DNA of 64,000 bases from IMG/VR virus record IMGVR_UViG_3300037245_000806, positions 1 to 64,000 of that record. One strand, 5' to 3'. This stretch comes from a virus. The translations under genes were made by a program, and so were the position numbers. The notes under the pieces are model-generated. The model was not told the DNA's origin. It searched no databases and was given only the letters and a program-made list of their open reading frames with translations. Every line of letters starts with the position of its first letter. Positions within the stretch are counted from its first letter, which is position 1. Shown here one piece after another: positions 822 to 61,735 of the stretch.

Positions 822-834
822 TGACACAGTGTTA
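822..834. promoter_or_regulatory. palindromic operator-like site 1 (TGACACAGTGTTA)
   Basis: overlaps stop of 832..1998, directly before RBS of next gene. Confidence 0.75.
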
Positions 835-1998
835 CGAATTCTGGAAAATCCGGTACAGTTCGCACCGGCTACACGTGCAGCCGTTCGCAGCTGCTTCAGC
901 CATCGTCTGGCCCTTGTCATGCATCCACTGACCTGACTTCAATCCGGGCAGGACAGCCGCGAGCTTCCCAACCCGTGGCGGCACCGCCTTGAGCGCGGAG
1001 TCAATACTCTCCACGATGATCTGTGCGGTGACCGGGGGCAGGGCCTCACGAACGTAGCCCTTCGCCTGCACCAACACGTCAGCCAATATGCCCTGCGAGG
1101 CAAGCGCCTCCCGGTACGGTCCTGTCTCCTCCACGCAGATGCACGGGCGACGACCTGTTCGCTCCTCGACCCACCCGTCACCATCGCACTCGTCGCAGAC
1201 CTTACCGCCAAGCTCGACAAGCTCGTCCTCTAATGCCTTGACCTTCTCGCGTGCCTCGTGGAGTTGATTCGATGCTTCCACCATTCGCGTGTGCGTGTGC
1301 CCACGCTTCTCTTCGGCGTCTTCGTACTTCGCAGTGATCCGGCCCATCTCGATCTGGAACTCAGCCTTCACCTTCGCCCAGAAGTCGCGAATGTACTGCG
1401 CAACGAAAACCTTCTCCTCGTCGCCGATGGTCTCAGCCTTGCACACCACATCCTCGATGAAGTCCTCGGCGTCCTTGTCAGTGTCCAGCGCATGCATATG
1501 CGCCGCGTTCAGCATGAACGACAGATGCCCCTGACCCGCCAAGTGCATCTGTAGCACCACGCCACCGAGAAGCGACTTGGCAGTCTGCAACTCCACCCCG
1601 CATGCTTCGATCTCTGTATGCAGCGAATCGTTCGTGCGCTCGCGCCGGTCCAGAGCAACACGAAGAAGCCGCATCTCCCGCCGAAAATCCATCACGTTAT
1701 CAGGCGTCCCCGCGAGGCTCCGCAGGAATACCCACGGGTCGTAGCACTCCTGAAACTGCGGGTCATCCCACTCAGGCACTTCACCGCCGGTACCTTCTAG
1801 GAATTCCGAGTCGAGCTTGGCGAGTTCCGCGAGGAGCTTGAACCAATCCTTCGGATGGACGCGCGCTTCGATCTGTTGGTGTGCCCGCGCGAGTACACCC
1901 TCGATGGTCAGCTGCACGACCGTGCCATCTTTCCGGGGGATGACTACAAAGCCCCCGTCCCACTTCGCGTTTCCAAAATCCAGTTCTCTCTCGGGCAT
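832..1998 (-). CDS. hypothetical coiled-coil protein with Cys motifs
   Basis: ATG 1998 with AAGGA RBS; heptad region; CDECDGDG...CIC and CTCSRC. Confidence 0.7.
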   Translation of the reverse strand: MPERELDFGNAKWDGGFVVIPRKDGTVVQLTIEGVLARAHQQIEARVHPKDWFKLLAELAKLDSEFLEGTGGEVPEWDDPQFQECYDPWVFLRSLAGTPDNVMDFRREMRLLRVALDRRERTNDSLHTEIEACGVELQTAKSLLGGVVLQMHLAGQGHLSFMLNAAHMHALDTDKDAEDFIEDVVCKAETIGDEEKVFVAQYIRDFWAKVKAEFQIEMGRITAKYEDAEEKRGHTHTRMVEASNQLHEAREKVKALEDELVELGGKVCDECDGDGWVEERTGRRPCICVEETGPYREALASQGILADVLVQAKGYVREALPPVTAQIIVESIDSALKAVPPRVGKLAAVLPGLKSGQWMHDKGQTMAEAAANGCTCSRCELYRIFQNS

Positions 1999-2104
1999 CG
2001 AATTTTTCCTTTCGTGACTCTGTGTCACGGATTCTTCGTTACGCTTCTCAGGCAACCTTGCATCGAGGCCGTTCTCCTCGGATTAGACTCTAAAAGGTGT
2101 GCGT

Positions 2105-2188
2105 GACAGGCGGCTGCCGTTTGCCGCCTGTCGTAGAACCTTTTTGTATCAATTGAATACATAGATATTACATGTAATGCATATGTAT
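2105..2188. other. GC hairpin plus AT-rich imperfect palindrome in intergenic gap
   Basis: GACAGGCGGC/GCCGCCTGTC stem 2105-2132; ATACATA-GAT-ATTACATGTAAT-GCA-TATGTAT 2157-2188. Confidence 0.55.
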
Positions 2189-2304
2189 ACAGATGATCCA
2201 TTGACCCATGGGCCAAAAGCAAGAAGTGTGCCAGTGTACCCACGGGACATAACCTCCTGAGCGTGGCGGGGTAGCAACATACTCCCCCAAAGAGTTCACG
2301 CGCG

Positions 2305-2317
2305 TAACACAGTGTTA
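2305..2317. promoter_or_regulatory. palindromic operator-like site 2 (TAACACAGTGTTA)
   Basis: overlaps stop of 2315..2989. Confidence 0.75.
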
Positions 2318-2989
2318 AAAAGAAGCAGGAATTGCAAGTGTGTACAATTGCTGCTGAATCTCATAGACGTTACCGACGTAATCTGTCACGCAGCTTTTAC
2401 GTTTGTCGCCTTTGATTGCCAAGCGGACCTCCGCATTCATCAGCGGTGTTGCCGCTTCAGTCGCCGCTTCCAGTATGGAGCACACTTCCCGTACTCGCCA
2501 GAAACGTCCCGTCTTTGACTTGGCCTTCTTGCCGCGTCGATGATTGCACGAGACGTAGAGCTTCTGAGGACTCACTGCGACTTGGACATTCGCCAGTTCA
2601 GTGTGGGTGTGTACAAACTTGAAGTTTAGCTCCTTGATTGCCTCGACCAGCGAATCAGTCGCTTCATCGACGTCCATGTACTTTGGCCTGTGCGTGAGGC
2701 CAGCGCTCTGCATGCTCGTGCGCCAATCTGTCAACTCGTCTTTGACGCCACGTAGTTCTGACTCGACCACAGTCCACCATTCGCTCATGCTGCGCGTATA
2801 GTGGTCCTTCAGTTCAGCTATGTATTGGGCCTTTGTCGGAAGAAGCTTCAGAATCCGATACCGTCGCGCCCGACCTTTCTCGCGTTCCGCCTCCTCGACA
2901 TACCCCAGAGTCTCCAAATCTTCGCCCGCACCTTTGTGGTACATGTTTGCGAGCTTCTGAACGCCGATGATGCCGATGCGCAGTATCAT
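2315..2989 (-). CDS. hypothetical protein
   Basis: 224-aa helical ORF abutting the RecQ stop. Confidence 0.7.
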   Translation of the reverse strand: MILRIGIIGVQKLANMYHKGAGEDLETLGYVEEAEREKGRARRYRILKLLPTKAQYIAELKDHYTRSMSEWWTVVESELRGVKDELTDWRTSMQSAGLTHRPKYMDVDEATDSLVEAIKELNFKFVHTHTELANVQVAVSPQKLYVSCNHRRGKKAKSKTGRFWRVREVCSILEAATEAATPLMNAEVRLAIKGDKRKSCVTDYVGNVYEIQQQLYTLAIPASF

Positions 2990-4871: not shown

Positions 4872-4884
4872 TAACACAGTGTCA
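4872..4884. promoter_or_regulatory. palindromic operator-like site 3 (TAACACAGTGTCA)
   Basis: overlaps stop of 4882..5079. Confidence 0.75.
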
Positions 4885-5079
4885 AGCCGCCCGCGAAGCA
4901 AGATAGAGCACGCAGTCCCACATCATCTGGTGGAACTTGGCCCGTGTCACTTCGTACACCTTCGGGCGATCTTGAATGGTAAAGGATACGTGGGTCTTCG
5001 TGATCGTCTCGATCTTGACATGAAGACCACCGCTATATGTCATGTACACGTCGCCCTCTTTGACGATGTAGCTATCCAT
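4882..5079 (-). CDS. small hypothetical protein
   Basis: TGATG coupling to the upstream gene, GGAGG RBS. Confidence 0.6.
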   Translation of the reverse strand: MDSYIVKEGDVYMTYSGGLHVKIETITKTHVSFTIQDRPKVYEVTRAKFHQMMWDCVLYLASRAA

Positions 5080-5234
5080 CAGCGCTTCCTCCTCCACGGC
5101 AACTGCGTCACGTAATACCACAGCACCTTCCACCAACGGTCATAGACATGGATTGCCCGGTATGAGGCGAAGCCACACTTCGGGCAGTCATACCCTCTAA
5201 GGAATAGGCGTTCACAGTGCGCACAAACTCGCAT
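5079..5234 (-). CDS. small Zn-finger protein
   Basis: CAHC..CPKCG; GGAGG RBS. Confidence 0.55.
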   Translation of the reverse strand: MRVCAHCERLFLRGYDCPKCGFASYRAIHVYDRWWKVLWYYVTQLPWRRKR

Positions 5235-5235
5235 C

Positions 5236-5555: not shown

Positions 5556-5813
5556 CTAGGCAGCCTTCTTGGCCTTCTTGGGCATCGCGGACGGCATGCC
5601 GTCGTAGCCTTCGAGGAACCACGCCGGGCTCACCTTCATCTTCTTGGCGAGCGTTTCGAGGTCGGCGAGGAGAATGGCGGTCTCGCCCCGGAGCTTCTTG
5701 CTCACGGTCTGCTGCGAGATGCTCATCATCTTGGCGACCTTCGCCTGCGTGCCACCCTTCGACATGATCCGCATGCCGATGTTCGTGTACCGTCCGACTT
5801 TCCTGTCAGCCAT
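5556..5813 (-). CDS. XRE/Cro-family helix-turn-helix regulator
   Basis: TQAKVAKMMSISQQTVSKKLRGE...LETLAKKMKVSPAWFL; GGTGGAG RBS. Confidence 0.85.
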   Translation of the reverse strand: MADRKVGRYTNIGMRIMSKGGTQAKVAKMMSISQQTVSKKLRGETAILLADLETLAKKMKVSPAWFLEGYDGMPSAMPKKAKKAA

Positions 5814-5887
5814 GAGTCTCCACCTCTCTCCTGCGCGACGGGTAAGCCCCACTCACTCGGCGGGGCGGTTTACGCCTGACACACCAA

Positions 5888-12901: not shown

Positions 12902-12914
12902 TGACACAGTGTTA
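12902..12914. promoter_or_regulatory. palindromic operator-like site 4 (TGACACAGTGTTA)
   Basis: overlaps stop of 12912..13838. Confidence 0.75.
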
Positions 12915-13838
12915 CGACTTCTTCCAAGTGCCGTTCTCATTGATATGCGCGTCGGCGAGCGCCCGGAGCCTCTTGTCCAACTCGGCCCAATCGGTGCCTT
13001 GGAGCTTGCGGAGGGTCTTGGCGTCGGCAGTGAGCTTCTCGATCTTGTCGAGCACCTTGTCGAGATTCATGCCGATCTGCGTGGGCCACTGGCTGGCGTC
13101 AGGGTTCAGCGTGAATGGCCTGAACTCGCTGAAGGGGTTGTTCGTGTTCTTGTCGTGGACGTGGATATACGCGGCTTCGTCATGTGTGATGACGTCGAGG
13201 TTGGCAAGCTCAAGTCCGAGATTCGCGTGCATCATCCGCCGGGTCAGTACATCGTAGGCCTGCGCTTCAATCGCCGTGATGAGCTTGTGACTCACCACGA
13301 TGACAATGCAGCGATGCGACACAGCGTGCTCACACTCGGAGTACCACGTGTCGCGGGCGGTATGGCACGACTCGGGATTGAAGCCTTCCCAGCGGGTACC
13401 TGTACGCAGGAGCGCTTCGTTCTCGGTGTCAATGTCGGGCTTGCCTTTGTACTCCTCCTTGTCAACGGTGAACAGCGCGTACTCAGACGTGCCCCGCTGG
13501 ATAATCCACTTCTGGAACTCCACCGGGAGGTCGCGGAAGACGATAGCGGGCAGCCCGCGCAACGCCCACGCCTGTTCGAGTTTTGGATCGCTCTCAGGGT
13601 AACTGTCGAAGGCCTTGTCTGTCGCGAAGACCTTGTGCGCGCCGTCGTCGTTTGTGGCGAGGCCTTCCGCGATAGCCCACTTGTGGAGTGTGCCATGCTT
13701 CCGGCCATCGGGCTCGACCATGCCGATACATACGACGCGCTGCGAACCATACAGCTTGTCGTCGATCACGGCCTGCGCCAGTGCGTCCCGCAACTTCTCC
13801 TTCTTCGCTTCGAGCGTCTCGTCGGTTTTGTGAGCCAT
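12912..13838 (-). CDS. hypothetical protein, first gene of the accessory operon
   Basis: ATG 13838 with AGGGGAG RBS. Confidence 0.75.
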   Translation of the reverse strand: MAHKTDETLEAKKEKLRDALAQAVIDDKLYGSQRVVCIGMVEPDGRKHGTLHKWAIAEGLATNDDGAHKVFATDKAFDSYPESDPKLEQAWALRGLPAIVFRDLPVEFQKWIIQRGTSEYALFTVDKEEYKGKPDIDTENEALLRTGTRWEGFNPESCHTARDTWYSECEHAVSHRCIVIVVSHKLITAIEAQAYDVLTRRMMHANLGLELANLDVITHDEAAYIHVHDKNTNNPFSEFRPFTLNPDASQWPTQIGMNLDKVLDKIEKLTADAKTLRKLQGTDWAELDKRLRALADAHINENGTWKKS

Positions 13839-13899
13839 GTTTGGCTCCCCTTTCGTTCCCGTCTCTGTGCGTCCCCTTGCTCCTTTACTTATCGGGAGG

Positions 13900-13927
13900 A
13901 TTATGCCTCGCCTTAACACAATGTCAA
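13900..13927 (-). promoter_or_regulatory. sigma70-like promoter with operator site 5 (13914-13926) overlapping -35
   Basis: TTGACA-16-CATAAT; A-tract upstream; TAACACAATGTCA. Confidence 0.7.
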
Positions 13928-20723: not shown

Positions 20724-20740
20724 CTTAACACAGTGTTAAG
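20724..20740. promoter_or_regulatory. palindromic operator-like site 6 (CTTAACACAGTGTTAAG)
   Basis: 17-bp dyad in a 34-bp gap. Confidence 0.75.
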
Positions 20741-38816: not shown

Positions 38817-38829
38817 TAACACAGTGTTA
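38817..38829. promoter_or_regulatory. palindromic operator-like site 9 (TAACACAGTGTTA)
   Basis: overlaps upstream stop and abuts GAGGTG RBS. Confidence 0.75.
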
Positions 38830-44340: not shown

Positions 44341-44709
44341 TTAAATCTTCAGCGTTTCGAGGTTCATGTCGGCACGAATCTGCACCTGCAAGCGCGTCTC
44401 GCCGAGGCCGACGACCCGCATGTGCGTGTCCACGCCCTCGCGGAGGAGGAGCGTATAGTCGCGATGCTCGACCTGCGGAATCACCTCGTCAACCACGCCC
44501 TTGAGGTTGTCGGCGTCCGTGGTGTCGGCCCACGTGCTGCCATCGGGAGAAACCTGCACGGAGACGGTGCCGTCGTAAAGGCCCTCTGCGTTCTCGAATC
44601 GCATCGAGACCTTTCCGCCATGGACGACGCGGAACTTGAGGACTTCACCCTCGGTGGCCGGAAGGCCAACGTCGAAATTCTGCACCGCAGCAACCTGACT
44701 CTTCGGCAT
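44341..44709 (-). CDS. beta-rich hypothetical protein, possible head decoration
   Basis: VQVSPDGSTWAD; AAGGAGG RBS. Confidence 0.65.
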   Translation of the reverse strand: MPKSQVAAVQNFDVGLPATEGEVLKFRVVHGGKVSMRFENAEGLYDGTVSVQVSPDGSTWADTTDADNLKGVVDEVIPQVEHRDYTLLLREGVDTHMRVVGLGETRLQVQIRADMNLETLKI

Positions 44710-44729: not shown

Positions 44730-44742
44730 TGACACAGTGTTA
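44730..44742. promoter_or_regulatory. palindromic operator-like site 10 (TGACACAGTGTTA)
   Basis: between promoter and RBS. Confidence 0.75.
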
Positions 44743-44759: not shown

Positions 44760-44797
44760 ATAATAGGTGGGGGGTAGTAGTTTGTCCAGCGTATTTT
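44760..44797 (-). promoter_or_regulatory. promoter for head operon
   Basis: AAAATACGC-TGGACA-17-TATTAT. Confidence 0.6.
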
Positions 44798-44828: not shown

Positions 44829-45557
44829 TTAGCGCTGACGATTGACAATGTCATCGACATAGCCGGTTGTCATCTCGATCTTTCCGGCCTCAAGTGACGC
44901 GGGGATGGGAAGGCGCTGCTCGATCAACCACGCGAAGAAGTCTTCCATGTCTGGCCTGTCTTCGTTGGAACTCCACTGCTCCGCGAAGACCTGAAGCCAC
45001 TCACTGGAACCGCCCACAGCAGCATTCCCATACTCGTCTATGGCGAGCACAGCCTTGGACCCCTGCACGGAATTCAGGAAGATTCGACCAACCTTGCGAA
45101 GGCCGCTATTGCGCTCCTGTAGTTCCTTCACGACGTCAATCTCAGGTCGTGCGTTGACTGCCTCGATCCATGGGCTGATGTCAATGCCATCGCCGAGTGA
45201 CTCCTGAAGATTCGCCAACGCAGTCAGGTACTCACTGCGATGCAGGTCTGTGTTTTCGCGTGCGCTCACGATACGTGCGGCCATATCGGCATCCGCAGCC
45301 CCGGCCAACACAATGTCCTTCGCGTCACCCATTGCCCAGCTATACGGCTCTTCCCCGACAAGTGGAGGTATGGGCTCGAACTCGTCATACGCGACTTCCA
45401 AGCCCTCACCCAACGCCCACGAAATTGTCCACCAATGTGCCCACAGAACCACAGACACGCCCTCGGAGGAGAGCGCGAAGTCAACCGGAACATCTTCCTC
45501 GTAGTACGGGGAGTGCAATTGGAGCCCACGCATGCTCGCCTGAACAAGGTCTATCAC
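44829..45557 (-). CDS. acidic hypothetical protein
   Basis: GTGA overlap with the giant ORF. Confidence 0.7.
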   Translation of the reverse strand: MIDLVQASMRGLQLHSPYYEEDVPVDFALSSEGVSVVLWAHWWTISWALGEGLEVAYDEFEPIPPLVGEEPYSWAMGDAKDIVLAGAADADMAARIVSARENTDLHRSEYLTALANLQESLGDGIDISPWIEAVNARPEIDVVKELQERNSGLRKVGRIFLNSVQGSKAVLAIDEYGNAAVGGSSEWLQVFAEQWSSNEDRPDMEDFFAWLIEQRLPIPASLEAGKIEMTTGYVDDIVNRQR

Positions 45558-48500: not shown

Positions 48501-51500
48501 ATGAACAAAGACGCCACGTCCTGCACAACTATCTTCGTCATAATCGACCATGCAGGAAACTTGACCTTCTTCATCCACGCCGTGCTGAACGTCGTCATGT
48601 TTGTACCGACGGCCTTCAAATTTCCGCCGTTAGCGTAGAGTTGCTGAATCAACTTATTAGTCTTGGGGTCAGGGTGAGTGAACCACGCGTCGGGATTGCC
48701 AAAGCCTTCGTCACCGGACACCGGGAGGTACGCCCCCATTGCGGTGTCGGTCGCGGACAAAACGATATACTGTCCGGCCTTATTCTGTGAGAACATAAGC
48801 TTGTGCTGCTTCTTCATTGTGTCCGTGACAGCGAGGTAGCCAAGACACACAAGAGGTGCCCCGTGCAGCAGGAACACGTCACCAAACGAGACACCCGGAA
48901 CACTGGCGTGCTGACGTGAGCAATTGAAGGCGGCAGGAGCATACCCCTCTTCTGCTACGACGTCCTTCAGCACCGTGAGCATTTCTTCGTTGACCGGATA
49001 CGGGCACTTGAACAAGAGCGCGCGCCATATGTCAGCCTTGCTGGTGTCCGCAGGGATCGTCTTAGTCTTTGCCATGACCGGTGAGACGACGGGGTAGAAG
49101 TCTTTAGCCTTCGTGGCGTATTCCTTCTTGCCGGTCGGCCCTTCAGCCTCCATCTGCCAATACAGCGTGCGCCAATCGAAATCAGTACCCGACTGCATTA
49201 CAATCGCAGTCGTGACAAAGCCCCCGGTGGTCACGTACCGCATGTAACCAATAACAGTCTGTTGTAGCTTTTCAATTTTGACGGTGACCTTAACGCCGGG
49301 CGGAGGATAGCCCTGATCCAACATCGACAGCGCTGGAATCCATGCCCACGTCTTTGCGTCCGGTAAACTCAATGAAGCAGACACCCACGCCACTGCACCC
49401 GCTGGGACAGCGTAGTCAACAATACTGGCCTGCTGGTCTGTGCCGGTGGCCGCTATCGTGTGCATGTCATTCGGATTGAACGCCACAACGCCGGTCTGCC
49501 CCTCGACGTCCTGCGGACCAGTGACCTGACTATACGCGTCGGCCTTCTCACCCGTGAAGAGGTGCGGCCAACCCTTGTCAAGAAGCCACTTGACCGTGGC
49601 GTCGGTGACCAGCTGATCACGCTTGTGCAGTTCCCCGTACCACGGCAGCTTCTGGTACGAAAGGGGCACTGGCTTGAATGTCACAGCGTCAGTCTCACTG
49701 CCCGCCTTCAGGGGGTCGCCGCCCGTGATATAGCCAATGAAGAATCGCGTGACTGAGTCGTTGCCCTTGAAATCGCCTAGATAACCCACGGGCTTCACGG
49801 CGAGGCCTGTCTCCTCGTACACTTCCCTGACAGCCGTCTGCTCAAGTGACTCGCCCTTGTCCACGGTCCCCTTCGGGTACGTGAGCGTGTACCCGCCGTA
49901 GTCGTTCATCGGGTTGACCAAGAGGAAGAGCGTGCTCGGTGCGGGTGCCATGGACTCGCCGTCGCTCATCATCGCCAGCGGAGGCATGACGGCAATGATA
50001 CCTGCTGAGATGTGTCCTCCCGTGGGGAGCTTCGCCATGGGGGGCTGCTCCACTGGGTCGGGGTCATCCCAGCCGTATGGCAGAGGAACACCCGCCCCGA
50101 TATTGGCGTCATAGGGGGTCTTCAGCGTCAAGCCTTGGCCGTTCATCTTGCTGAAGACCATCTCACCGGTAACCGAATTCATGTCGGCGCTGTGCTTGAA
50201 CGCGATGGTGTAGCTGTTCGCAAGGTCTTCGACTTCGACGAGGTACGTGGCATCGTCGTCCTTGTGCCGCAGGACCGCCAACTTTTCACCTGTTGGCTCG
50301 CCCATCTTCGTCTGGTCTACCCACGCAATCAACTTGATCTTCTGGGGCTCAGTGGCGGGCTTGTACACCAGCTTAGCACCGACAGGGAATGGCGCGTCGT
50401 CTGGCGACGGGACGTAAATCAGTTTGTCTTCCAGCGCCACCTTCTTCGCGGTGCTGCTCAGCGCATAGTTAAGCTTCGGGAACGCAACCACCTCCTTGCC
50501 GGGGGCCGGGAGGAGTTCGTCCACCACGTCCTGCAAAATCTCGATCATGGGGCCATACGCCATGTTCCCTGAGAGCGCCTGCTTAAAATTGATGTTCCCC
50601 TTCTCAGTCATGATGATGTAGTAGTGCTTCGGCGAATCGCCATCTGGTTGTCGCGCGTACCCGATGATCGTGCGCGTCTTGGCGTGCCCGTAAGCAAGCT
50701 TCCCCCCAAGATCAAACATGAAGATGGGGCTGTCGCCCTTCGTGAGGGGTACAAAGCCCTTCTTCGCGATGAACTGAAGTGCCTCCGGGGTGCCTGACAT
50801 CTTCGACGGGCCAGCCTCCGAGTCCAGCGCGTCTTCAGCACCTCGCTCGGGTCGCGGACCTTCGGGCTCATAGCTGGACGTGACCGGCTTGCCTATGGAC
50901 GCGTAATCGATGACGTAGTAATTGGGGTACGTGATTGTGTTGCCGCTCAGCGTGATGGTGTCGAACGCATATGCCAAGACAACCTTGCCGTCGTCTGTAT
51001 CGAAGGCACTGACAAGGGTGTAATCCTTGTCGCCGAGCGCAACAGGGCCACCGGCAGAAAAGCCCGGCGGCAGGCTAATCGCAGACGCCGTTGTCCAATT
51101 CGGTATGGTCACGTACTTCTCGCCGGTCATCGTGCCGTCAACGTGCGTGGCAATGTCTACACCACTGTCCTCAATCGACTCCTTCAACTGAGTCTCGACA
51201 TTGCACCCTGTCGCTGACGCATGCAGGCGCAACAGCTGATACATACCGTCGTCAAAGCCAAGGACCAAGTAGTTCCCCAGACCTTGCCGCTTAACGATGG
51301 TGCCGATCTCGAACTTCATCGGAGGCCCGCCTTCAGTGGCGGTCGTGGGCGTGCCAGCTATTTCCGGCGTTTGCGAGGCCACGTTCAAGACATTCGGGTC
51401 TTTCCAGCCCGACAACTTGATGTTGCCCTCCGAAATGATATCAGCGAAGTCACCGTCATCCTGCCAGATTAGCTCGCCGTCAGGATTGCGGATGATGATG

Positions 51501-53305
51501 ATCAAACCCTCGGGCGTCGTATACACCGCGAGGAACACGAACACGTCGCCGTTCTTGTCTGTGAGCGTCATGCCCTCTGAGAGGTGCCCGCTAAAACGAT
51601 TGTAAGCCGCCATTGACGAGTCTGTGTCATTGAACGACGCCTTCTCAAATGTCGTGTAGTGGTTGGGGAAGTCAGCCGCGAGAAGCTCGTCGATCTCGCC
51701 TTCCTGCGTCGTAACAGGCTCCTGCACAGCCGCAGGTGCCACCACAGTCTGGCCATACAGAGTTCCGGGCATGTCCTTGTGCGCCTGCTTGACGACAGTC
51801 GTGCCTCCGGTCAGATCGCTGGTAAAATTGTGGTCCAAGATACCTACCACTTTGCCCTGCGGATTCTCGACCATGTGTACGACCGTACCTGACGCGTTCT
51901 TCCACGCGCCAAGATACACGTAGTCCACGCCAGCCAACGTTATTATGGAGTAAACACCCAAGGGCGTCTTCTTACCCAACGCCACGAACGCCGCCTTGGT
52001 GCTCTTGACCGGGGTGGTCTTTGAGTTCTTCCAAGCAGGGCCGCTGAGATACTTGGCGACCTTCGCCTTTTCCGACTTCTTCGCAAGCGTCTGCTGAAGC
52101 TTGATGCCGTCCTTGGGTATCGGGTTGCCCTTCACGAACTGCTCGAAGTATGGGCGCACGTCAGCGTCACGTGGGATGTTCTCTAGAATGTGCTGCCAGT
52201 TGCCCTTCTTCCAATCGGCGATGAAGATATGAAAGAGGTTACCGGCAAGCTTGTTCTGTGCTGTCCATCGCCGAGCGGAGCCGAGAAGCTTCTTGGCAAA
52301 TGGCGGCGGAATGTTCTTGCCGTAGTACGCCTTCCATACGAGCGAGATCACCTCGGCCTCAACGCCGCTGAACTTCGGATCGCCAGCTGAGGAGACGTAC
52401 CGACCGCCGTCAGGATGGAAGTAGGAGATGCACGTGTTGATCGTGTCATTGTACGATAACCACGACAGCGGATTCTGGCCATACTTCGGCGGCTTCGCCG
52501 ATAGCTCGTTGTACTCCTTGACGATATCAGGCGCTTCCGTGGCGAGGATGAAGTACGCCACGAATGGAGCCCACACAAGCTTCGCAGCCTGCTTCGGGTT
52601 CATGCCCGTGAAGACATACTTCTTGAACGCCTCCAAGACCAGCTTATCGTCAGGCGGCGTGTTGCGCTTGAGGAACGCAAGGTCACGTGAGGCGGCAATG
52701 CGATACTCAACGTCTTCCGCCATCATCGCACGATACAGCGTTCGGAACGGGTTCGGTGTGTGATAGCGCCTGTACACCGCGTTCCCGACAGCCTCAGCGC
52801 TCTGACCGAATGCCTGCCTGAGGTCCAGTGGCCATCCTGTTGCACGCATGTAGTTCTCAGTGAAACGCGCTGCCTTGCGTGGGTTCAGATCGTACTCGTA
52901 ACGCCACGCGCCGAGTGCGAAGCGATTGTACACACCTTCCGGGCGAAGGGTCATGAGTTCCGTCACGGGATCAGCCGGAATGATGCCCTGCTCAACTGAC
53001 TCCTTGAAGACCCGGTCGGACCACGCACGCCCGCTGGCTGAACCGTGTAGGTACCACGATTGAATCAGCGCGGAGTCCTGAAGGGTCTTGAAGGATTGCA
53101 CCTCTTCGAGATACGGCTTCGCGTTGACCGCGAAGAAGCGGTGCAGCTTGGCAACAACATCGAGAGTCACGTGACCGCTGGCGAGAGCCTCAGCCATACT
53201 GAAACCAGCGACACCGGGTAGCTTCCCCTCGGGATCACTGTGGGCGTCTAGGCCCTTCTGGGCGGCACGCTGAACAATCGCTGGAACGATGAAGGTCATT
53301 GGCAT
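45554..53305 (-). CDS. giant multidomain (polyvalent-like) protein: Nudix, HipA/PI3K-like kinase, possible ADP-ribosyltransferase
   Basis: GTVDKGESLEQTAVREVYEETGL; GGS..WFFK..E..DHDGHRGN..VDRG; ATG 53305 with GAGGG RBS. Confidence 0.85.
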   Translation of the reverse strand: MPMTFIVPAIVQRAAQKGLDAHSDPEGKLPGVAGFSMAEALASGHVTLDVVAKLHRFFAVNAKPYLEEVQSFKTLQDSALIQSWYLHGSASGRAWSDRVFKESVEQGIIPADPVTELMTLRPEGVYNRFALGAWRYEYDLNPRKAARFTENYMRATGWPLDLRQAFGQSAEAVGNAVYRRYHTPNPFRTLYRAMMAEDVEYRIAASRDLAFLKRNTPPDDKLVLEAFKKYVFTGMNPKQAAKLVWAPFVAYFILATEAPDIVKEYNELSAKPPKYGQNPLSWLSYNDTINTCISYFHPDGGRYVSSAGDPKFSGVEAEVISLVWKAYYGKNIPPPFAKKLLGSARRWTAQNKLAGNLFHIFIADWKKGNWQHILENIPRDADVRPYFEQFVKGNPIPKDGIKLQQTLAKKSEKAKVAKYLSGPAWKNSKTTPVKSTKAAFVALGKKTPLGVYSIITLAGVDYVYLGAWKNASGTVVHMVENPQGKVVGILDHNFTSDLTGGTTVVKQAHKDMPGTLYGQTVVAPAAVQEPVTTQEGEIDELLAADFPNHYTTFEKASFNDTDSSMAAYNRFSGHLSEGMTLTDKNGDVFVFLAVYTTPEGLIIIIRNPDGELIWQDDGDFADIISEGNIKLSGWKDPNVLNVASQTPEIAGTPTTATEGGPPMKFEIGTIVKRQGLGNYLVLGFDDGMYQLLRLHASATGCNVETQLKESIEDSGVDIATHVDGTMTGEKYVTIPNWTTASAISLPPGFSAGGPVALGDKDYTLVSAFDTDDGKVVLAYAFDTITLSGNTITYPNYYVIDYASIGKPVTSSYEPEGPRPERGAEDALDSEAGPSKMSGTPEALQFIAKKGFVPLTKGDSPIFMFDLGGKLAYGHAKTRTIIGYARQPDGDSPKHYYIIMTEKGNINFKQALSGNMAYGPMIEILQDVVDELLPAPGKEVVAFPKLNYALSSTAKKVALEDKLIYVPSPDDAPFPVGAKLVYKPATEPQKIKLIAWVDQTKMGEPTGEKLAVLRHKDDDATYLVEVEDLANSYTIAFKHSADMNSVTGEMVFSKMNGQGLTLKTPYDANIGAGVPLPYGWDDPDPVEQPPMAKLPTGGHISAGIIAVMPPLAMMSDGESMAPAPSTLFLLVNPMNDYGGYTLTYPKGTVDKGESLEQTAVREVYEETGLAVKPVGYLGDFKGNDSVTRFFIGYITGGDPLKAGSETDAVTFKPVPLSYQKLPWYGELHKRDQLVTDATVKWLLDKGWPHLFTGEKADAYSQVTGPQDVEGQTGVVAFNPNDMHTIAATGTDQQASIVDYAVPAGAVAWVSASLSLPDAKTWAWIPALSMLDQGYPPPGVKVTVKIEKLQQTVIGYMRYVTTGGFVTTAIVMQSGTDFDWRTLYWQMEAEGPTGKKEYATKAKDFYPVVSPVMAKTKTIPADTSKADIWRALLFKCPYPVNEEMLTVLKDVVAEEGYAPAAFNCSRQHASVPGVSFGDVFLLHGAPLVCLGYLAVTDTMKKQHKLMFSQNKAGQYIVLSATDTAMGAYLPVSGDEGFGNPDAWFTHPDPKTNKLIQQLYANGGNLKAVGTNMTTFSTAWMKKVKFPAWSIMTKIVVQDVASLFIPGAATKPVYEAVIGMLKARMKASHKGKNKLAKKTKAPVGAPPTATGMVQKSYAAVPAWKPVIAPVVKIGTAKIAFDSPAILQQVSAPEPGLFKDTGGTISGGSNPCAVLSSPGGFQWFFKTPKDQAEVRVHVEVAAFKLAQLVDKTPTVPVGKMEFNGKLGSFQPLLEGSPPESDPNDLPDEDKGEILTQHMLDMFMGDHDGHRGNWMRLKAGRLVPVDRGQAFKFVLKGLTESLDPHWHPKGNVGEGYAKKLLNDWGASTAEIPELAWKAAREMIEKIRKLTEKHIQGLLAPIFASEDITGAKRTKILDTLYKRQKNYLKDWTKVLKKLQSDFKWPKIGKIKMSMKAPRLRIDPKTLGFGKAQAEDIAIASAYPIRGRAMKVDRDSIEQQEVMVKAVMWEKSPGKKVPATLIHFRMARHAGMLAVPKLLKQSGVIKQVTGSGGPHLLAVDSQNGFWSKIQAAIKSINYHLAPEEDGGGANQDMAVNEKTMAACFAIKPDLIAIIKATGKTAGTYGPMDEPNAIVNSMAGMYLEYLTLYIEPIMADLLAHKGKHTPKLGEFLWQAPEVDESDEQPDVPKAFDVKGNSHAKWPKVVQEADGTLLLQHDSHDVYAGANQDQFVIVAKALGAKLFVNSTGMDSNLPGLQTGVKGHQGQSWGYIEGTASAATIATLFTLFAQATGIDMSVATEKDKEILFWSKQAYLNQSGGEIKPKSDGTGVVTPEYTTAMELYRKGADDLALSALQKQTAKALGISVTKAKAEAKPLLAGRYDEGSVGYMRHERLGWDRAKLEKLFGKHFYVGHGLNSTTKSYIKSLGELPILMAHNVRSFWGAGNTGASVESDYGYGGTQGVFLGFRKAATKQDHVLYFDKSLALRTDCVVVGRGDEFGSDVKERLMTPEQWKRDFDEGYGSSSGALNTMSRYQVNVRHGINLLDYLYRATCANQSDIDAILDMCAERGWTAFGPQKQPPEKVFVLVGKEKL

Positions 53306-53317
53306 AATTAGCCCTCG

Positions 53318-53330
53318 TAACACTGTGTTA
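53318..53330. promoter_or_regulatory. palindromic operator-like site 11 (TAACACTGTGTTA)
   Basis: abuts RBS of the giant ORF; only copy with inverted centre. Confidence 0.75.
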
Positions 53331-53353
53331 AGCGGTTGCGGACATTATGCACT

Positions 53354-54571
53354 TTAGATGGCAGGCGTCAAGGCCTGCCAATCGGCATCTTCTCCATGAA
53401 CCTGCTCGACCCAACGCATACGAATCGTGTCAACGTGAGTTGGGCTCATCTCAGCCATGTAGCAGACACGACCGAGCGCCTCAGCTGCGGCGAGCGCGGT
53501 ACCCGATCCACCGAAGGGATCGAAGACAATTTGGCCTTCCGAGGTCGAGTCCTCAACCATCTGGGTAATCAATTCCACGGGTTTCTGGCAGGGGTGCAGC
53601 TTGTTGACCTTGGGCTGCGGGTACTCAAAGACATTCGAGCAAATCCGGTTCGGCTTCGGCAACGCAACGCCAGCACGACCGCCGTAAAGGAGGAGGTCGA
53701 ACTGATGCATGTAGTCACCCTGCGTGAGGTTCCACGAGTCCTTCGCCCACATGAGCCACTGGTGTACCTCGCCCTTGTTCATTAGCCATGACTCGAAGAG
53801 GTTGGGCAGGAAGCGACTCGCGCAAAAGACATACGACGCGCCCTTCGTGACAGACAGGATGGTCTTGCACATGGCAGTCAGGAACATCGCCCACGAATCG
53901 CTGTCCATGTCGTCGTTATCAATGCCCTCCCACGAGTAGTTCTCGTAATCGACATTGTACGGCGGGTCGGTGATGCAGACGTGCGCCTTCTTGCGCCCGA
54001 AGAGGTCGAGCACTGCGCCGGGTTGCATGATGTCGCAGCACGCGAGACGGTGCTTGCCCAACTTATAAATGGTGTCCTTCTTCGACGCGGCTTTGTCTGG
54101 TGCCTCGGGTGTCTTGTCCTTCGCCCTGTTCTGAAGCTTCTTATCCTTCGGCAACAGCGCGTGAATGGACTCCTGTAGCTCAGCGAAACCCATCACGTCA
54201 AGCTGCGGCAATGACTTGCGTATCGACTCAAGCTGAGGGAGCGCCTTCTCCGCGTCCCAATGGCCCTGCACCGCTGGGTTATTCATCACGAGGTTCGCCG
54301 TCTTCTCAGTCACCTCATCGAACTCGACGACGATGCAGTCCACGAACTCAAAGCCCTCCTCAACGAGGCCTCTGATTCGCTGATGCCCCGAAATGCAGCG
54401 CGGAGGATCGACGGCAACGTTGACCACCGGTACTTCGAGAAGGGTCAGCGCGCGGAGGGATTCCTTGAGCCCGCGAAGAGCGTCGGGCGTGATGTCTCGC
54501 GGGTTGTAGTCGGCAAGCTCGATGTCAGCTAGGCGAAGCTTCCGGGTCTCCGGCTGAAGCGCTGCGGGCAT
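53354..54571 (-). CDS. ParB-N domain plus N6A/N4C DNA methyltransferase (beta class)
   Basis: YNPR..SGHQR; TDPPYN, HPCQKPVEL, FDPFGGSGT. Confidence 0.9.
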   Translation of the reverse strand: MPAALQPETRKLRLADIELADYNPRDITPDALRGLKESLRALTLLEVPVVNVAVDPPRCISGHQRIRGLVEEGFEFVDCIVVEFDEVTEKTANLVMNNPAVQGHWDAEKALPQLESIRKSLPQLDVMGFAELQESIHALLPKDKKLQNRAKDKTPEAPDKAASKKDTIYKLGKHRLACCDIMQPGAVLDLFGRKKAHVCITDPPYNVDYENYSWEGIDNDDMDSDSWAMFLTAMCKTILSVTKGASYVFCASRFLPNLFESWLMNKGEVHQWLMWAKDSWNLTQGDYMHQFDLLLYGGRAGVALPKPNRICSNVFEYPQPKVNKLHPCQKPVELITQMVEDSTSEGQIVFDPFGGSGTALAAAEALGRVCYMAEMSPTHVDTIRMRWVEQVHGEDADWQALTPAI

Positions 54572-54812
54572 TTTTGGTCTCCTTCACAACTTGCGCGAGC
54601 GCGTGTGCGCGTGCGCCGTTACTCGACATGGCTCTCAGCCGGGTGTAAAGCCTGTGCGCTGATTCAGCGGTCTCGCGCACGATCTTACTGGTTTCAGACT
54701 CAGGGTCATCAAGTTCCTTGAGCCTTTGCGCCGCCCTCTCTGCAATAGCCTTGCGCAACTCAGGTGACAACGCGCTGAGCGCCGCGTGTAGTTTGTTCTT
54801 TGAAGCCGTCAA
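54525..54812 (-). CDS. small helical hypothetical protein
   Basis: TTG start overlapping the upstream TGA; fills gap between the two MTase genes. Confidence 0.5.
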   Translation of the reverse strand: MTASKNKLHAALSALSPELRKAIAERAAQRLKELDDPESETSKIVRETAESAHRLYTRLRAMSSNGARAHALAQVVKETKNARSASAGDPEASPS

Positions 54813-56089
54813 TCGATCATTGGTGTCACGGCCTGCCACTTCGCCCCCTCGCCATGTACGAACGTGGCCCATCGCTTCCGCACGATGTCGCAGAGCCGGG
54901 GCGTTCGCACGTATCCGATGAGCCGACGACCTGTCTTCTCAGCTGCAATGACCGTGGCCCCTGTGCCCATGTTCGGATCAAGCACGGTGTCGCCGATCTT
55001 CGAGGAGTCCATGATCGCGCGAGTCACGATCTCGACCGGCAACTTCGTCGTGGGCTTACGCTTCAAGCGGAACAGATTGCCAACGCTGCGCTCGCCCTTC
55101 ACCGCATTCCTCGCACGGAAGTATCGAGGAGAGCCTTCGCGCCAACCGTAGAGGACCGGAATCGTCGCCTCCCGGTAAGGGTACTTGGAGCTTGCCTTGA
55201 GCGAAGGGATCATCCACGCAAGCGTGTTGGACCAATGCCCCCCGAGCGCCACGAACCTTTGGTGGAGTCGCGGCAGCGTGAGAAGATTACTCGCTACGTA
55301 GACGTTGCCGTCAGTGTTATCGAGCGTGTGCTGAAGCATGACGTTCAAGAAGTCTTCGTTCACGTGCTTGGTCTCAGCGATGCACGTGAAAGCCATATCG
55401 GCGACCTTGACAGGAAAGCCTTCAAGGCTCCCCGGCTTCTCAATGGCGGCGCAAGCAATGACGTGCTCGCCCAGCTGATAGAGCCGTCCCCGTACTGACT
55501 CGGGTGATGTGCGCGCCACGGAGGGCTCAATATCCTCGTCAACCTTGCCGTGATTCTCGACGTCGTCAACGCCAGCCACAGCGCGAAGACTCCGCAAGGT
55601 GGTCTTGAGAAGTGAGTCCAGCCGCAGTGACTTGAGTTGCTTCTGTGCCTTGTCCCCGAGGGTCGAGCCGATGTCAGCGAGTAGTCGCTTCGTGAGTTCC
55701 GGTATGAAGTGCCCCCGGATGGTGCCGTTGTTGAGCGCGAAGTTGGCCCGGCGCTCCGTGGCATCATCGAAGCGGACGACAATGCAGCTAACCTCCTCCA
55801 CGCCATGAGCGATAAGCTGCCGGATGCGCTGGTGACCGCCGACGATACGCGCGCTGCCCTTGCGTAGGTTCACGACAGGGAAGGCGAGCAACCCCAGCTG
55901 CTGAAGGCTATTCGAGAGCCCGGTGAGCGCGTCCTGCGTAATGGACCTCGCGTTGTACGGGGCCTCTTCGAGCGCTGCTATGTTGAGGGTCTTCAGGGTG
56001 ACGCTGGCGTACTTCGGGTCGGCCTTCGGCTTCTTCACCGCAGACTTGCTCTTCTTCTTGGCGCTCTTCTTCTTCTTACGGGCAACCAT
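54809..56089 (-). CDS. ParB-N domain plus degenerate DNA methyltransferase
   Basis: YNAR..GGHQR; AFTCIA in place of TDPPY; VLDPNMGTGAT. Confidence 0.8.
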   Translation of the reverse strand: MVARKKKKSAKKKSKSAVKKPKADPKYASVTLKTLNIAALEEAPYNARSITQDALTGLSNSLQQLGLLAFPVVNLRKGSARIVGGHQRIRQLIAHGVEEVSCIVVRFDDATERRANFALNNGTIRGHFIPELTKRLLADIGSTLGDKAQKQLKSLRLDSLLKTTLRSLRAVAGVDDVENHGKVDEDIEPSVARTSPESVRGRLYQLGEHVIACAAIEKPGSLEGFPVKVADMAFTCIAETKHVNEDFLNVMLQHTLDNTDGNVYVASNLLTLPRLHQRFVALGGHWSNTLAWMIPSLKASSKYPYREATIPVLYGWREGSPRYFRARNAVKGERSVGNLFRLKRKPTTKLPVEIVTRAIMDSSKIGDTVLDPNMGTGATVIAAEKTGRRLIGYVRTPRLCDIVRKRWATFVHGEGAKWQAVTPMID

Positions 56090-56143
56090 GCTGCCCTCCC
56101 TCTCGTTGTAAAGGGGTACGGGCGTGTGAAACACAACGTAGTC

Positions 56144-58407: not shown

Positions 58408-59358
58408 TCAGGCGTCGTCGCCTGCCTTGTCCTTCTTGGTTTCGTCTGGGGCACGCCCGTTGGTCACGTGCTCGCAAAGGCTGCCTGCGAGCGATGCGCC
58501 TTCGAGGATGCGCTTGGGCCTCGGCTGGCCTTCGACGGATGCGGCAATGCCCTTCTTGCCCTTTTGCGCGCCCTTCTTGGCGAGCTTCTTGGCCGCGCCC
58601 TTCTTGGCCTTCGCCTTCTTCTTGACCGTCTTGCCGCCCGCAGCGTCGGCGGTCGCCTGCCCCATCTTCGCCTTCTTGGCGGTACGGGCAATCGCGCCCT
58701 TGTGCGCCTTCTTGTACTTCTGCCACTTCTTGACGCCCGCCGGGGTGCCATCGGCGTAACCGGCAGGGTCTTTCTTGTAGTCGCCCGACTTGTAACCCTT
58801 GCCCGACGGAACGCGCTTGATGACCGACTTGTGGAGCATGGCGAGGAGCATGCGCGTGACCCTGTCCTTGCCCTTGTCGCTGCGGTTGCGAATCTTGCGG
58901 AACTCGCCCTTCTTGAACGGCCCCTTCGCCTCATCGACCTCGTAGCCCGCGAACTCCAAGGCCGCTGCGAGACGCGCCTTCTCTTCGAGCGTGTCGCCGC
59001 CGAGTTCGTTCTCAAGGTGGTACTCGAACATGGCGAGGAGGTCATCGACGTCGATGATCTTCGCGAGCGCCTCGGGGTCGAGGGTCTCGACAGGATACAG
59101 AGTCGCGCCCTCTTCGCCTTCCTTGGAGGCCTCGAACACACCGTCCTTCTCGGTGAGCCAGAGTTCCTCGAAGGTCACGATACCGGACTCGCGAACCTCG
59201 GGGTCAGCGAAGACCTCCTGAAAATCCACGCCATCGAGGAAGTCGCTGATGATTTCGCCTTCGAGGGTGAGGGTCTCCCCGTCATCCTTGAAAAGCAGGC
59301 CCATTACGTCCTGAGGATCACTGCTCGCTGCTTCGCCAACGCTAATCTCGACCGGCAT
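58408..59358 (-). CDS. bipartite acidic / Lys-Ala-rich protein, possible prohead core or DNA-condensing protein
   Basis: acidic N-half; KKKAKAKKGAAKKLAKKGAQKGKK; AAGGAGG RBS. Confidence 0.7.
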   Translation of the reverse strand: MPVEISVGEAASSDPQDVMGLLFKDDGETLTLEGEIISDFLDGVDFQEVFADPEVRESGIVTFEELWLTEKDGVFEASKEGEEGATLYPVETLDPEALAKIIDVDDLLAMFEYHLENELGGDTLEEKARLAAALEFAGYEVDEAKGPFKKGEFRKIRNRSDKGKDRVTRMLLAMLHKSVIKRVPSGKGYKSGDYKKDPAGYADGTPAGVKKWQKYKKAHKGAIARTAKKAKMGQATADAAGGKTVKKKAKAKKGAAKKLAKKGAQKGKKGIAASVEGQPRPKRILEGASLAGSLCEHVTNGRAPDETKKDKAGDDA

Positions 59359-59396
59359 GTTACGCCTCCTTCCGAATCCCATTCGTAGTACCCGGA

Positions 59397-59434: not shown

Positions 59435-59440
59435 TGCTCA

Positions 59441-59461
59441 CTCGTGACACAGTGTCACGAG
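59441..59461. promoter_or_regulatory. palindromic operator-like site 12 (CTCGTGACACAGTGTCACGAG)
   Basis: 21-bp dyad with perfect 10-bp arms. Confidence 0.8.
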
Positions 59462-60775: not shown

Positions 60776-60824
60776 TCGATTCTCCCCTCGTAGCCTGAAG
60801 ACCACATCATGCACGGAGCGAATA

Positions 60825-61037
60825 CTAAGTCAAGCCCTTTCGAGCGGAATTTATGACCTTCCGCAGGGTGCCGCTGGACTTGGATTTCGTTACGCGTTTT
60901 CGCGCCTCCGCGCATCGCTGAGAAAGCGTGTCTGCCTCTAGAAGTGAATTCAAATTGGTGGCCAACTCCGCAACAAACGCCGCACGGTCTTTACGACTCG
61001 TGTCGATACACCACGAAATGAATTCTCCATACTCCAA
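60825..61037 (-). CDS. small hypothetical protein
   Basis: purine-rich RBS; fills gap. Confidence 0.55.
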   Translation of the reverse strand: MEYGEFISWCIDTSRKDRAAFVAELATNLNSLLEADTLSQRCAEARKRVTKSKSSGTLRKVINSARKGLT

Positions 61038-61064
61038 CCTGCCCTTCCCTTCTCCCCCCGTAGC

Positions 61065-61580
61065 TTAACAACCCCCGGCCTTCCGCATACGCTCGCGAAT
61101 ACTCATGCGAGATTTCTTGCGCACACCTCCGCTCGATTTCTTGCGAACGCCCGCACTTGGCTTCTTGGTGGTCAGGCCTGCATGCTGCTTCAGCACCGTG
61201 AGCGCTTTCAACGTGTGGAGATTGACGTCTACTTCGTTGAGCAACTCCGTATCGAACCGCTCGATTGTGCGCACGATACCGGCGAGGGTGGAAGCTTCCA
61301 TTGGCTCACTGCCGAAGAGCAACTCGGAGGCGAGGTATCGCGTTTGCTGTTGCGGGAAATACATAAGCACGGCTAGAAGCGCGTCTTCAAGGTCTTGCGG
61401 CAGCTTCGATGTTGACGTATGTGTAGGTGTGCTGCGCAGAGGCGGGGCAGACGAGGCGCGCTTGCGCAGCTTCACGCCCTCATTGGGCTTTACGCGCTTG
61501 CGGAGGCGTACACCCGAGTTTGCCGTCGCACGTGCATTCGTGCTGCATTTCGCCGACGAGGTTGCGGAGCCGCTTTTCAT
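61065..61580 (-). CDS. basic protein with GV(R/K)(L)RK repeats
   Basis: GVRLRKR, GVKLRKR, GVRKK twice, flanking a helical core. Confidence 0.6.
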   Translation of the reverse strand: MKSGSATSSAKCSTNARATANSGVRLRKRVKPNEGVKLRKRASSAPPLRSTPTHTSTSKLPQDLEDALLAVLMYFPQQQTRYLASELLFGSEPMEASTLAGIVRTIERFDTELLNEVDVNLHTLKALTVLKQHAGLTTKKPSAGVRKKSSGGVRKKSRMSIRERMRKAGGC

Positions 61581-61686
61581 TCATTGCCTTCTCTCGAACC
61601 GTTCTCCTGAGTCGCCAGTTCTGTACTGCCTGCACGACAACCAACACGTACAGCACAATGATTACGGCTGCGCAGGGTATTGACAT
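61480..61686 (-). CDS. small membrane protein
   Basis: GGGGAGGAGG RBS, N-terminal TM helix, CTC...C. Confidence 0.5.
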   Translation of the reverse strand: MSIPCAAVIIVLYVLVVVQAVQNWRLRRTVREKAMNEKRLRNLVGEMQHECTCDGKLGCTPPQARKAQ

Positions 61687-61707
61687 AACGCCTCCTCCCC
61701 CTGTAGC

Positions 61708-61735
61708 AGAATAGCAATCGGTAACACAGTGTCAA
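61708..61735 (-). promoter_or_regulatory. sigma70-like promoter with operator site 13 (61722-61734)
   Basis: TTGACA-16-TATTCT with TGn extension. Confidence 0.7.

Follow-up and report, generated by a model that had tools for sequence, protein, structure and literature searches.

The first 64,000 nucleotides of the virus record IMGVR_UViG_3300037245_000806 (the window; the genome, a single record of 143,033 bp, is called here G000) contain 13 copies of the palindrome TRACACWRTGTYA, which raises the question of which protein reads this site and to what end. A sequence-only reading of the window had proposed that one protein controls many gene junctions through these copies, and had put forward an NrdR-like protein and an XRE-type protein, both encoded in the window, as candidate binders. 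Comparison with related phages points to another protein. With a probability that we place slightly above even, the palindrome is read, as a parS- or operator-like cognate site, by an orphan ParB-family protein that the phage encodes outside the window and would use as a genome-wide regulator.

All 13 copies reported for the window are present, and 100 dinucleotide shuffles yielded none (expected number, 0). Over the 143,033 bp of G000, TRACACWRTGTYA occurs 26 times, and the looser pattern TRACAY-N-RTGTYA has 28 exact and 11 one-mismatch occurrences, compared to 0 and 2, respectively, in a reversed-genome control. Read on the minus strand, which carries nearly all of the genes, the consensus is [C/G][G/T]-T[A/G]ACAC-T-GTGT[C/T]A-[C/A]G, and we regard the site as a 17-bp palindrome because its information content is roughly symmetric on both flanks. 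Given sensible start codons, none of the 13 copies lies in a gene body, as had been claimed; the copy at 4872 is within the longest open reading frame (ORF) of a helicase gene, yet 146 nt upstream of its ATG at 4726, which has a GGAGAG ribosome-binding site. Eight copies end 11-22 nt ahead of a start codon, again in agreement with the sequence-only reading. As to its statement that six copies supply the stop codon of the upstream gene, the overlap is secure at five copies (822, 2305, 4872, 12902 and 38817) and possible at 20726, 24007, 31435 and 59445, where it hinges on which overlapping ORF is real. The whole-genome check confirmed the intergenic enrichment, about 20 of the 26 sites being located in the ~10% of G000 that is non-coding, with coding sequence making up the other ~90%. 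ORFs harbour six sites (83643, 85645, 98779, 104414, 107472 and 121307). The proposal of one factor acting at many junctions, in the accessory, head, tail and baseplate modules, is supported.

Two of the sites, at genome positions 90287 and 98779 (L002:10287 and L003:4779), are identical over 21 nt, TAACACTGTGTCACGACTACG. The one at 98779 stands in frame within a 2081-aa ORF and has GGGAG behind it and, 15 nt on, an ATG in the same frame; it could mark an internal start or an internal promoter.

Relatives of G000 were retrieved through the capsid protein and the ParB-like protein; a single-protein ParB search of IMG/VR returned almost nothing, and the ParB relatives were recovered with an alignment-based search. 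Each relative has its own version of the palindrome: ~47 copies of TGACA[CGA/TCG/CSG]TGTCA in G001 (150 kb, complete), 17-18 copies of GTGACA[GCG/CGC]TGTCAC in G006 (156 kb, complete), 40 copies of TRACAY-W-RTGTYA in G007 (95 kb), a few copies each in G003 and G004, GGACAC-S-GTGTCC types in L034, L035 and L043, CCAACAAWTTGTTGG in G002 and G008, and ATTAACGA-N-TCGTTAAT in L008 and L250. No clear repeated motif was found in L036, L038 and L041, and CCGATSATCGG occurs just twice in G009. In the four large genomes roughly every second site supplies a stop codon, and a start codon follows 5-40 nt behind about half of them, both fractions being upper bounds. The site family is conserved in related phages at orthologous junctions. 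Site-bearing junctions common to several genomes are located upstream of the tape-measure gene (site 31435 of the window, with a site also at the orthologous junction in G001), at 38827/38263, downstream of the ortholog of gene 44341 and upstream of the ParB-like gene. At the second of these junctions, site 38817 of the window is replaced by CAACAAATTGTTG in G002 and by ATTAACGAATCGTTAAT in L008.

Which protein could read a site of this kind? Among the 40 proteins common to G000, G001 and G006, the ParB-like protein alone has a recognised sequence-specific DNA-binding domain. Its gene (genome positions 126631-127773, minus strand) lies outside the window and encodes 380 aa that form a ParB_N CTPase (cytidine triphosphatase) domain, a helix-turn-helix (HTH) domain and a putative C-terminal dimerisation region. 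Pfam matches were obtained with ParB_N (5.5e-12) and HTH_ParB (6e-8), and the best match in the Protein Data Bank (PDB) is ParB 6t1f (1.7e-16, with the HTH aligned too), followed by Noc and Spo0J, KorB reaching 2e-5. Alignment with C. crescentus ParB reveals the CTP motifs GERRLRA (GxRR, box II) and AENSEEGR (ENxxxxR, box III); across 28 homologs G119, R122 and E156 are invariant and E120 and R121 are conserved in at least 90%, GHRR replacing GERR in the G001 ortholog. A homodimer model of the protein gave an ipSAE of 0.55, compared to 0.00 for the best control, with interface residues 288-342 and 92-156. In the calibration of this procedure the mark was attained by 20 of 30 solved homodimers and by 1 of 23 monomers. 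Runs for the ParB-like dimer agree on at least 49% of contacts, with a pLDDT of at least 66; since ParB dimers have already been solved, the pass may reflect likeness to known structures.

ParA (AAA_31) was absent from G000, G001, G006 and G007 in a search that matched 14 of 14 control genomes, and the ParA-binding motif LG[KR]GL is not present in the ParB-like protein. With neither a ParA neighbour nor this motif, the locus does not have the make-up of a ParABS partition system. Its gene context is conserved, the ParB-like gene standing between a RecA-like (RecA/UvsX-like) gene and a flap endonuclease gene, with Rad50/SbcC-like genes nearby. All near-complete genomes with an ortholog of the ParB-like gene carry a dense xGACA-N3-TGTCx array of 17-56 sites (26-30 in G000, 47-56 in G001, 17-18 in G006 and 40 in the 95 kb of G007; controls, 0). 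The recognition helix begins with H-x-x-K-[I/V]-R-R in phages with a GACAY core, and with YAERIRR and EQSRVRR in lineages with different cores. Site 127852 is within the ParB-like gene's own promoter, TTGACA-N17-CATACT, and a site in or just upstream of the ParB-like promoter is found in G000, G001, L031, L034 and G007.

Two types of near-identical phages that differ in their palindromes allow the protein and the sites to be compared further. Along 13 kb, L008 and G002 have an identity of 93-96%, which reaches 99-100% in most places and is lowered by a few diverged patches; yet two junctions that they share carry ATTAACGAWTCGTTAAT in the former and CCAACAAWTTGTTGG in the latter. In the replication module, ~7 kb of L250, an L008-type contig from the sample that also yielded L008, is 99-100% identical to L249/L251 of the G002 type. 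Two palindromes of this module, one behind the DNA polymerase gene and one ahead of the flap endonuclease gene, are exchanged between the types within otherwise identical flanks. Within the ParB-like gene, the identity of L250 to L249 falls to 69-81%, with its minimum across the HTH domain, and is 91-95% at the 3' end; the differences in the protein are clustered in and after the recognition helix. Judging from these alignments, closely related phages most likely changed the ParB-like protein and the sites together.

The same phages bear on the possibility that a host transcription factor recognises the site and that the phage exploits host regulation. Such a factor would be in keeping with the left half-site, which often equals the host -35 consensus TTGACA. 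However, near-identical phages from similar samples have entirely different palindromes at the same junctions, which fits a specificity determinant borne by the phage better than one borne by the host, and we regard a host factor as very improbable.

Another dimeric regulator of the phage might read the site, either the XRE protein of the window (HTH_3 gene, 5556-5852, minus strand; 5556-5813 in the sequence-only reading) or a core protein without annotation, the ParB-like gene then being merely a member of the regulon. XRE dimers typically bind palindromes of 14-17 bp; HTH_3 genes occur in G001 too, one of them with a site just upstream, and three core proteins have no assigned fold. However, the XRE gene of the window has no site nearby and no ortholog in G001, which speaks against it as the binder, short of a formal exclusion. 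A 100-aa XRE protein encoded at another locus, next to the polymerase gene in the sister lineage, is letter-identical in both types of the swap pair despite their different palindromes; for the contig that joins this XRE gene with the L008-type ParB gene, the palindrome type was deduced from L250, which has an identical ParB protein. The 231-aa core protein resembles a small terminase, a weak lead that comes from a language-model score of 0.92 only. Taken together, we hold a regulator of this kind to be improbable. Two adjoining fusions of a ParB_N-like domain with a DNA methyltransferase (53354-54571 and 54809-56134, minus strand), present in G002 and G004 and not in G001, were also considered as site readers (53354-56134) and dropped because G001 is devoid of them.

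The NrdR-like protein (gene 56-544, minus strand), the other candidate of the sequence-only reading, would tie phage expression to ATP/dATP levels. NrdR boxes are 16 bp long, consist of ACAC, an AT-rich 8-mer and GTGT, and are located upstream of nrd genes. They thus share the ACAC...GTGT arms of the site, and the NrdR-like gene belongs to a two-gene unit directly downstream of site 822. Nevertheless, this gene was found only in G000: the complete relative G001, with its 47 sites, lacks it, as do all other relatives checked. The arms are spaced by 1 nt here compared to 8 nt in NrdR boxes, and G000 has no canonical, AT-rich-centred NrdR box and no ribonucleotide reductase above the Pfam cut-off. 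The zinc ribbon of the protein was matched at 2e-16, and its ATP-cone match is weak, below the Pfam cut-off. These results leave NrdR next to no probability as the reader of the site.

Is the site read as double-stranded DNA or as a hairpin? The sequence-only reading had argued for DNA bound by a dimer from half-sites that vary independently, citing sense-strand A.C mispairs at 822, 12902 and 44730, and these mispairs are indeed present. Across the 26 copies of G000 the combinations at positions 2 and 12 are A-T in 5, G-C in 3, G-T in 9 and A-C in 9, which indicates that pairing is not under selection; perfect pairs are fewer than independence predicts, and a mispair on either strand is seen in a third of the copies. 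RNA folding favoured no more than 3 of the 13 window sites over shuffled controls (z < -2), and several form no motif hairpin. Independent half-sites and poor folding both argue that a dimer reads the site as double-stranded DNA. Were it to form in RNA or single-stranded DNA, a hairpin could act as a processing or stability signal, or as an N4-like hairpin promoter for a phage RNA polymerase, and would be compatible with arms that reach 8-9 bp in G001 and G006, with sites immediately upstream of ribosome-binding sites and with a central base that is oriented with transcription in G000. This base is indeed shared by 12 of the 13 window sites, as had been stated, and by 23 of 26 genome-wide; by contrast, its orientation is mixed in G001, G006, G007, L031 and G004, with a bias that is weak or reversed compared to G000. 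An A.C mispair is found on the sense strand in 9 of the 26 copies of G000 and on the template strand in another count of 9 of 26, 10 of the 13 window copies fold no better than shuffles, and compensatory changes are absent. Neither sigma-70 region 2 nor a T7-like RNA polymerase was found in G000, a weak negative, as control genomes matched nothing either in the T7-like search, which makes that result uninformative. A hairpin is extremely improbable in our judgement. Its N4-like promoter form had been prompted by the 5-7-bp stem, the 3-nt loop and the template-strand purine at the loop centre; the lack of conserved pairing and the mixed orientation among relatives led us to drop it.

To what end would a ParB-like dimer bind these sites? 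Sigma-70-like promoters with at least 10 of 12 matches number 12 on the gene strand of G000 and 1 on the other strand, a bias which suggests that the host RNA polymerase transcribes much of G000, including the structural genes. At seven of these 12 best promoters the centre of a site is located at -27/-28 (13914, 24007, 61722, 100889 and 127852) or at +13/+17 (53318 and 44730), compared to a chance expectation of 0.25. This association is partly circular since the left half-site can itself read TTGACA; the -10 element is independent of the site. A -10-like hexamer stands at the right distance from 5 of the 12 sites with a TTGACA left half in G000 and from 10 of 24 in G001; the background is ~2%, and 1-2 cases are seen among the remaining sites. 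Furthermore, a T precedes the TGACA half-site in 11 of 12 cases on the gene-strand side and in 4 of 12 on the other side, which argues for selection of a -35 element facing the genes. Because -27/-28 and +13/+17 are classic repressor positions, we infer that promoters of the host polymerase are repressed, including that of the ParB-like gene by its own product.

According to this model, a dimer of the ParB-like protein would bind each 13-17-bp site. At five promoters, where the site covers the -35 hexamer and the spacer, and at two others, where it is just past the start point, binding would block the host RNA polymerase; the promoters blocked in this KorB-like manner would include that of the ParB-like gene. 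About 18 of the 26 sites have no recognisable promoter signal and fill the minimal space from a stop codon to the ribosome-binding site that follows. These would most likely be extra nucleation or loading points, from which the protein may hold or spread on the phage DNA, probably in a CTP-dependent manner. Such junction sites might serve as roadblocks to transcription, as clamp-loading points or as structural anchors.

With the same ParB-like binder, the role of the array could instead be mainly structural, ParB-CTP complexes condensing, gathering or tethering the replicating phage genomes like Noc, chromosomal ParB or a loader of SMC; placement at junctions would then merely keep the sites clear of coding constraints and of collisions with RNA polymerase. 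Chromosomal ParB and Noc, and not KorB, are indeed the best structural relatives, the gene resides in the replication/recombination module, with the RecA/UvsX-like and flap endonuclease genes and near the Rad50/SbcC-like genes, no ParA was found, and the promoter-less sites are in the majority (~18 of 26). By contrast, the classic operator positions of the sites at 7 of the 12 best promoters and the selection of TTGACA on the sense-strand half only are those of a regulator. In addition, the sites are strongly intergenic, unlike chromosomal parS and Noc sites, which are not excluded from genes. We consider a mainly structural role unlikely, yet far from negligible.

In G001 (L013-L020; for example at 3077, 108004 and 129419) about 13 sites are part of a highly conserved composite promoter. 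It consists, in this order, of a TTCCGCG-N3/4-CGCGGAA palindrome, ~8 nt, the site, 7 nt and a TAnnnT hexamer (15-nt spacer), and its leader contains a GGTCC-N4-GGACC palindrome. These extra palindromes suggest additional regulators.

Several observations weigh against regulation of the phage by its ParB-like protein. A symmetric dimer does not account for the central-base bias of G000 (23 of 26), and the repression of structural-gene promoters by a protein of the replication module has an odd timing logic. Core proteins of 122, 231 and 312 aa, which have no assigned fold, are still possible binders. No family site is found at the ParB-like promoter of L032, L033, L035, G006 and the G002/L008 types, which indicates that autoregulation is not universal. 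In the G002 type (L249 8822-10972, L251 16231-17804) there are two tandem ParB-like paralogs of 373 and 323 aa, 57% identical and with different recognition helices, which makes the site reader ambiguous there; the L008 type has a single ParB-like gene. The co-variation is based on one clean swap and a few lineages, and the swap loci are mosaic, with other diverged patches in the same loci. Lastly, the phage is recorded from metagenomes alone.

By analogy, the closest functional counterpart of the ParB-like protein would be KorB of the IncP plasmid RK2. KorB, a CTPase of the ParB family that contains an HTH domain, acts as a global repressor; its operator OB is a 13-bp odd-centred palindrome with the core TTTAGCGGCTAAA, of which copies are found replicon-wide, either in promoters or distant from them (PMC11790492, PMC13584720). 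Like KorB, the phage system has many sites across the replicon (26 in G000), some of them in promoters, including that of the ParB-like gene itself. Unlike KorB, it belongs to a large tailed phage and not to a plasmid, most of its 17-56 sites are wedged between the stop codon of one gene and the ribosome-binding site of the next, ParA/IncC was not found, and the protein is nearer to chromosomal ParB/Noc (1.7e-16) than to KorB (2e-5), a difference that speaks against orthology with KorB. No KorA/TrbA-like clamp-locking partner was identified, and no search aimed at one was made. Noc serves nucleoid occlusion and chromosomal ParB segregation; with their NBS and parS sites they are the closest sequence relatives and share palindromic sites dispersed over the replicon, and by analogy a site-dependent, CTP-driven loading may be expected for the phage protein. 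However, their sites are not tied to junctions or promoters, whereas the phage sites are clearly linked to promoters, and ParA is absent.

The sequence-only reading had likened the array to the stoperators of mycobacteriophages, which in cluster A are asymmetric 13-bp sites of temperate phages, orientation-dependent and read by a monomeric two-domain immunity repressor (PMC9283540, PMC6550527). The likeness stands for the layout, with tens of sites in short intergenic gaps, one phage protein as the presumed reader and co-variation of site and protein among relatives. It does not extend to mechanism or membership, since the site is palindromic, the predicted binder is a dimer of the ParB type and G000 yielded no integrase. 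Several dispersed ParB-type sites are known in other phage genomes: the plasmid-prophage N15 has four SopB sites (IR1-4), partition by SopA and SopB complexes that can silence a nearby promoter (PMC7205306), and phi29-family phages have parS sites read by the host Spo0J (PMC2731898). Unlike these, the present system has a phage-encoded orphan protein and far more sites. Orphan ParB proteins are listed in phages by a 2025 survey, which assigns them no function in its accessible part (PMC12704722). We found no description in the literature of such an array in a large, apparently virulent phage.

The genome G000 has 58.7% GC and an estimated completeness of 98%. Structural genes of a myovirus (for the major head protein, sheath and baseplate) form a module within the window; the genome outside it encodes a T4-like portal, a family A DNA polymerase, a primase, helicases, a flap endonuclease, Rad50/Mre11-like proteins and a RecA-like protein. 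The only full match among sequencing runs is a marine sediment metagenome, which may be the source sample, and no RNA sequencing runs containing G000 were listed. Megablast of 20 kb of G000 against 50,697 phage records gave no match, and SPO1-like phages have DNA polymerases with just ~33% identity to that of G000. The major capsid protein has no relative in 185,579 bacterial and archaeal genomes, and thus offers no clue to a prophage or a host.

CTP switches of the ParB type have been described in chromosome and plasmid segregation and in Noc, VirB and KorB. A broader proposal, which we make tentatively and with some doubt, is that in ~145-kb, apparently virulent sediment myoviruses an orphan ParB-type CTPase acts as a master switch that loads at 17-56 palindromes, located in sigma-70-type promoters and at stop/start junctions, its reading head and all of the sites being replaced together between phages that hardly differ elsewhere. 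If true, this could reflect a heteroimmunity-like arms race among lytic phages or the avoidance of cross-regulation in co-infection, and the concerted replacement of dozens of scattered sites would be an unusual evolutionary event in itself. KorB-style global control would then extend to large virulent phages and could explain how expression is timed without an RNA polymerase or sigma factor of the phage. In phage T4 the gp45 clamp couples late transcription to the state of the DNA, and in a bolder version of the proposal a sliding ParB-like clamp would do the same. The locus suggests a concrete, testable function for an orphan phage ParB and offers a defined site, a protein, predicted promoters and a swap pair, the latter being ready material for mapping the residues with which ParB reads DNA.

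The window sites, and the genes and promoters next to them, are all on the minus strand. The sense-strand sequence TAACACTGTGTCA is found at 822-834, 12902-12914 and 44730-44742. At 822 its TAA is the stop codon of ORF 832-2055, and gene 553-807, which is followed by the NrdR-like gene, starts 14 nt downstream. At 12902 the TAA ends ORF 12912-13919, and the next gene begins with a GTG 22 nt downstream, behind a GGAGGAG ribosome-binding site. The copy at 44730 is downstream of a promoter-like TGGACA-N17-TATTAT (44760-44788), with its centre near +17, and the ATG of a conserved 122-aa gene (44341-44709) follows 20 nt on; this unit heads the segment leading to the major capsid gene. TAACACTGTGTTA occurs at 2305-2317, where its TAA is the stop codon of ORF 2315-2989, at 20726-20738, between gene 20743-21144 and a tail gene (19308-20708) that starts 17 nt downstream, and at 38817-38829, where the TAA terminates 38827-39591 and 11 nt separate the site from the next gene.

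At 4872-4884 the site reads TGACACTGTGTTA; it is preceded by a T, which gives TTGACA, and its TGA is the stop codon of ORF 4882-5136, the helicase gene downstream being RecQ-like. The same sequence is located 12 nt upstream of the 1267-aa tape-measure-like gene (27619-31422), at 31435-31447, and at 61722-61734, over the -35 hexamer and spacer of a sigma-70-like promoter with a TG extension (TTGACA-N16-TATTCT, 61708-61735, 10/12 matches) that has an ATG 35 nt past the site. TGACATTGTGTTA similarly covers the -35 hexamer and spacer of the top sigma-70-like promoter of the window (TTGACA-N16-CATAAT, 13900-13927, 11/12 matches), at 13914-13926 with the centre near -27, and of TTGACA-N16-TAGGAT (23993-24020, 10/12 matches), at 24007-24019, where the ATG of gene 23570-23986 follows 20 nt on. 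The site at 59445-59457, TGACACTGTGTCA, has flanks that extend it to a palindrome with 10-bp arms; it is upstream of gene 58408-59382 and is overlapped by a weak promoter-like match, GTGACA-N17-AAAAAT (9/12).

TAACACAGTGTTA, at 53318-53330, is the sole window copy with the opposite central base. It is downstream of a promoter-like TTGACG-N16-CATAAT (53344-53371), with its centre near +13, and the ATG of a giant protein (2583 aa) is 12 nt past it. The corresponding ORF (45554-53323, 2589 aa), which has a strong sigma-70-like promoter with a site at ~+13, contains an internal Nudix motif and is conserved across the phage family. Inside the 3' end of this gene is a weaker family member, TGACATCGTGTTA on the plus strand (45740-45752), which matches TRACAY-N-RTGTYA and not TRACACWRTGTYA.

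A scan of IMG/VR for TTAACGAWTCGTTAA returned mostly chance single matches, plus two unrelated phages with a tandem pair. In these unrelated viral contigs (97 kb and 42 kb; L201 375-422 and L205 6708-6755) tandem TAACGAWTCGTTA palindromes are 33 nt apart; the pairs, a chance find, look like a classical double operator. In L249 (8730-8770) and L250 (7995-8035) the ParB-like promoter, TTGACA-N17-TACTAT, has a GGCCCG-CA-CGGGCC palindrome in its spacer in place of the family site. The same two contigs carry, next to the DNA polymerase gene, a gene that matches the anti-Pycsar Apyc1 and metallo-beta-lactamase families (L249 3545-4414, L250 2811-3680) and may be an anti-defence gene.

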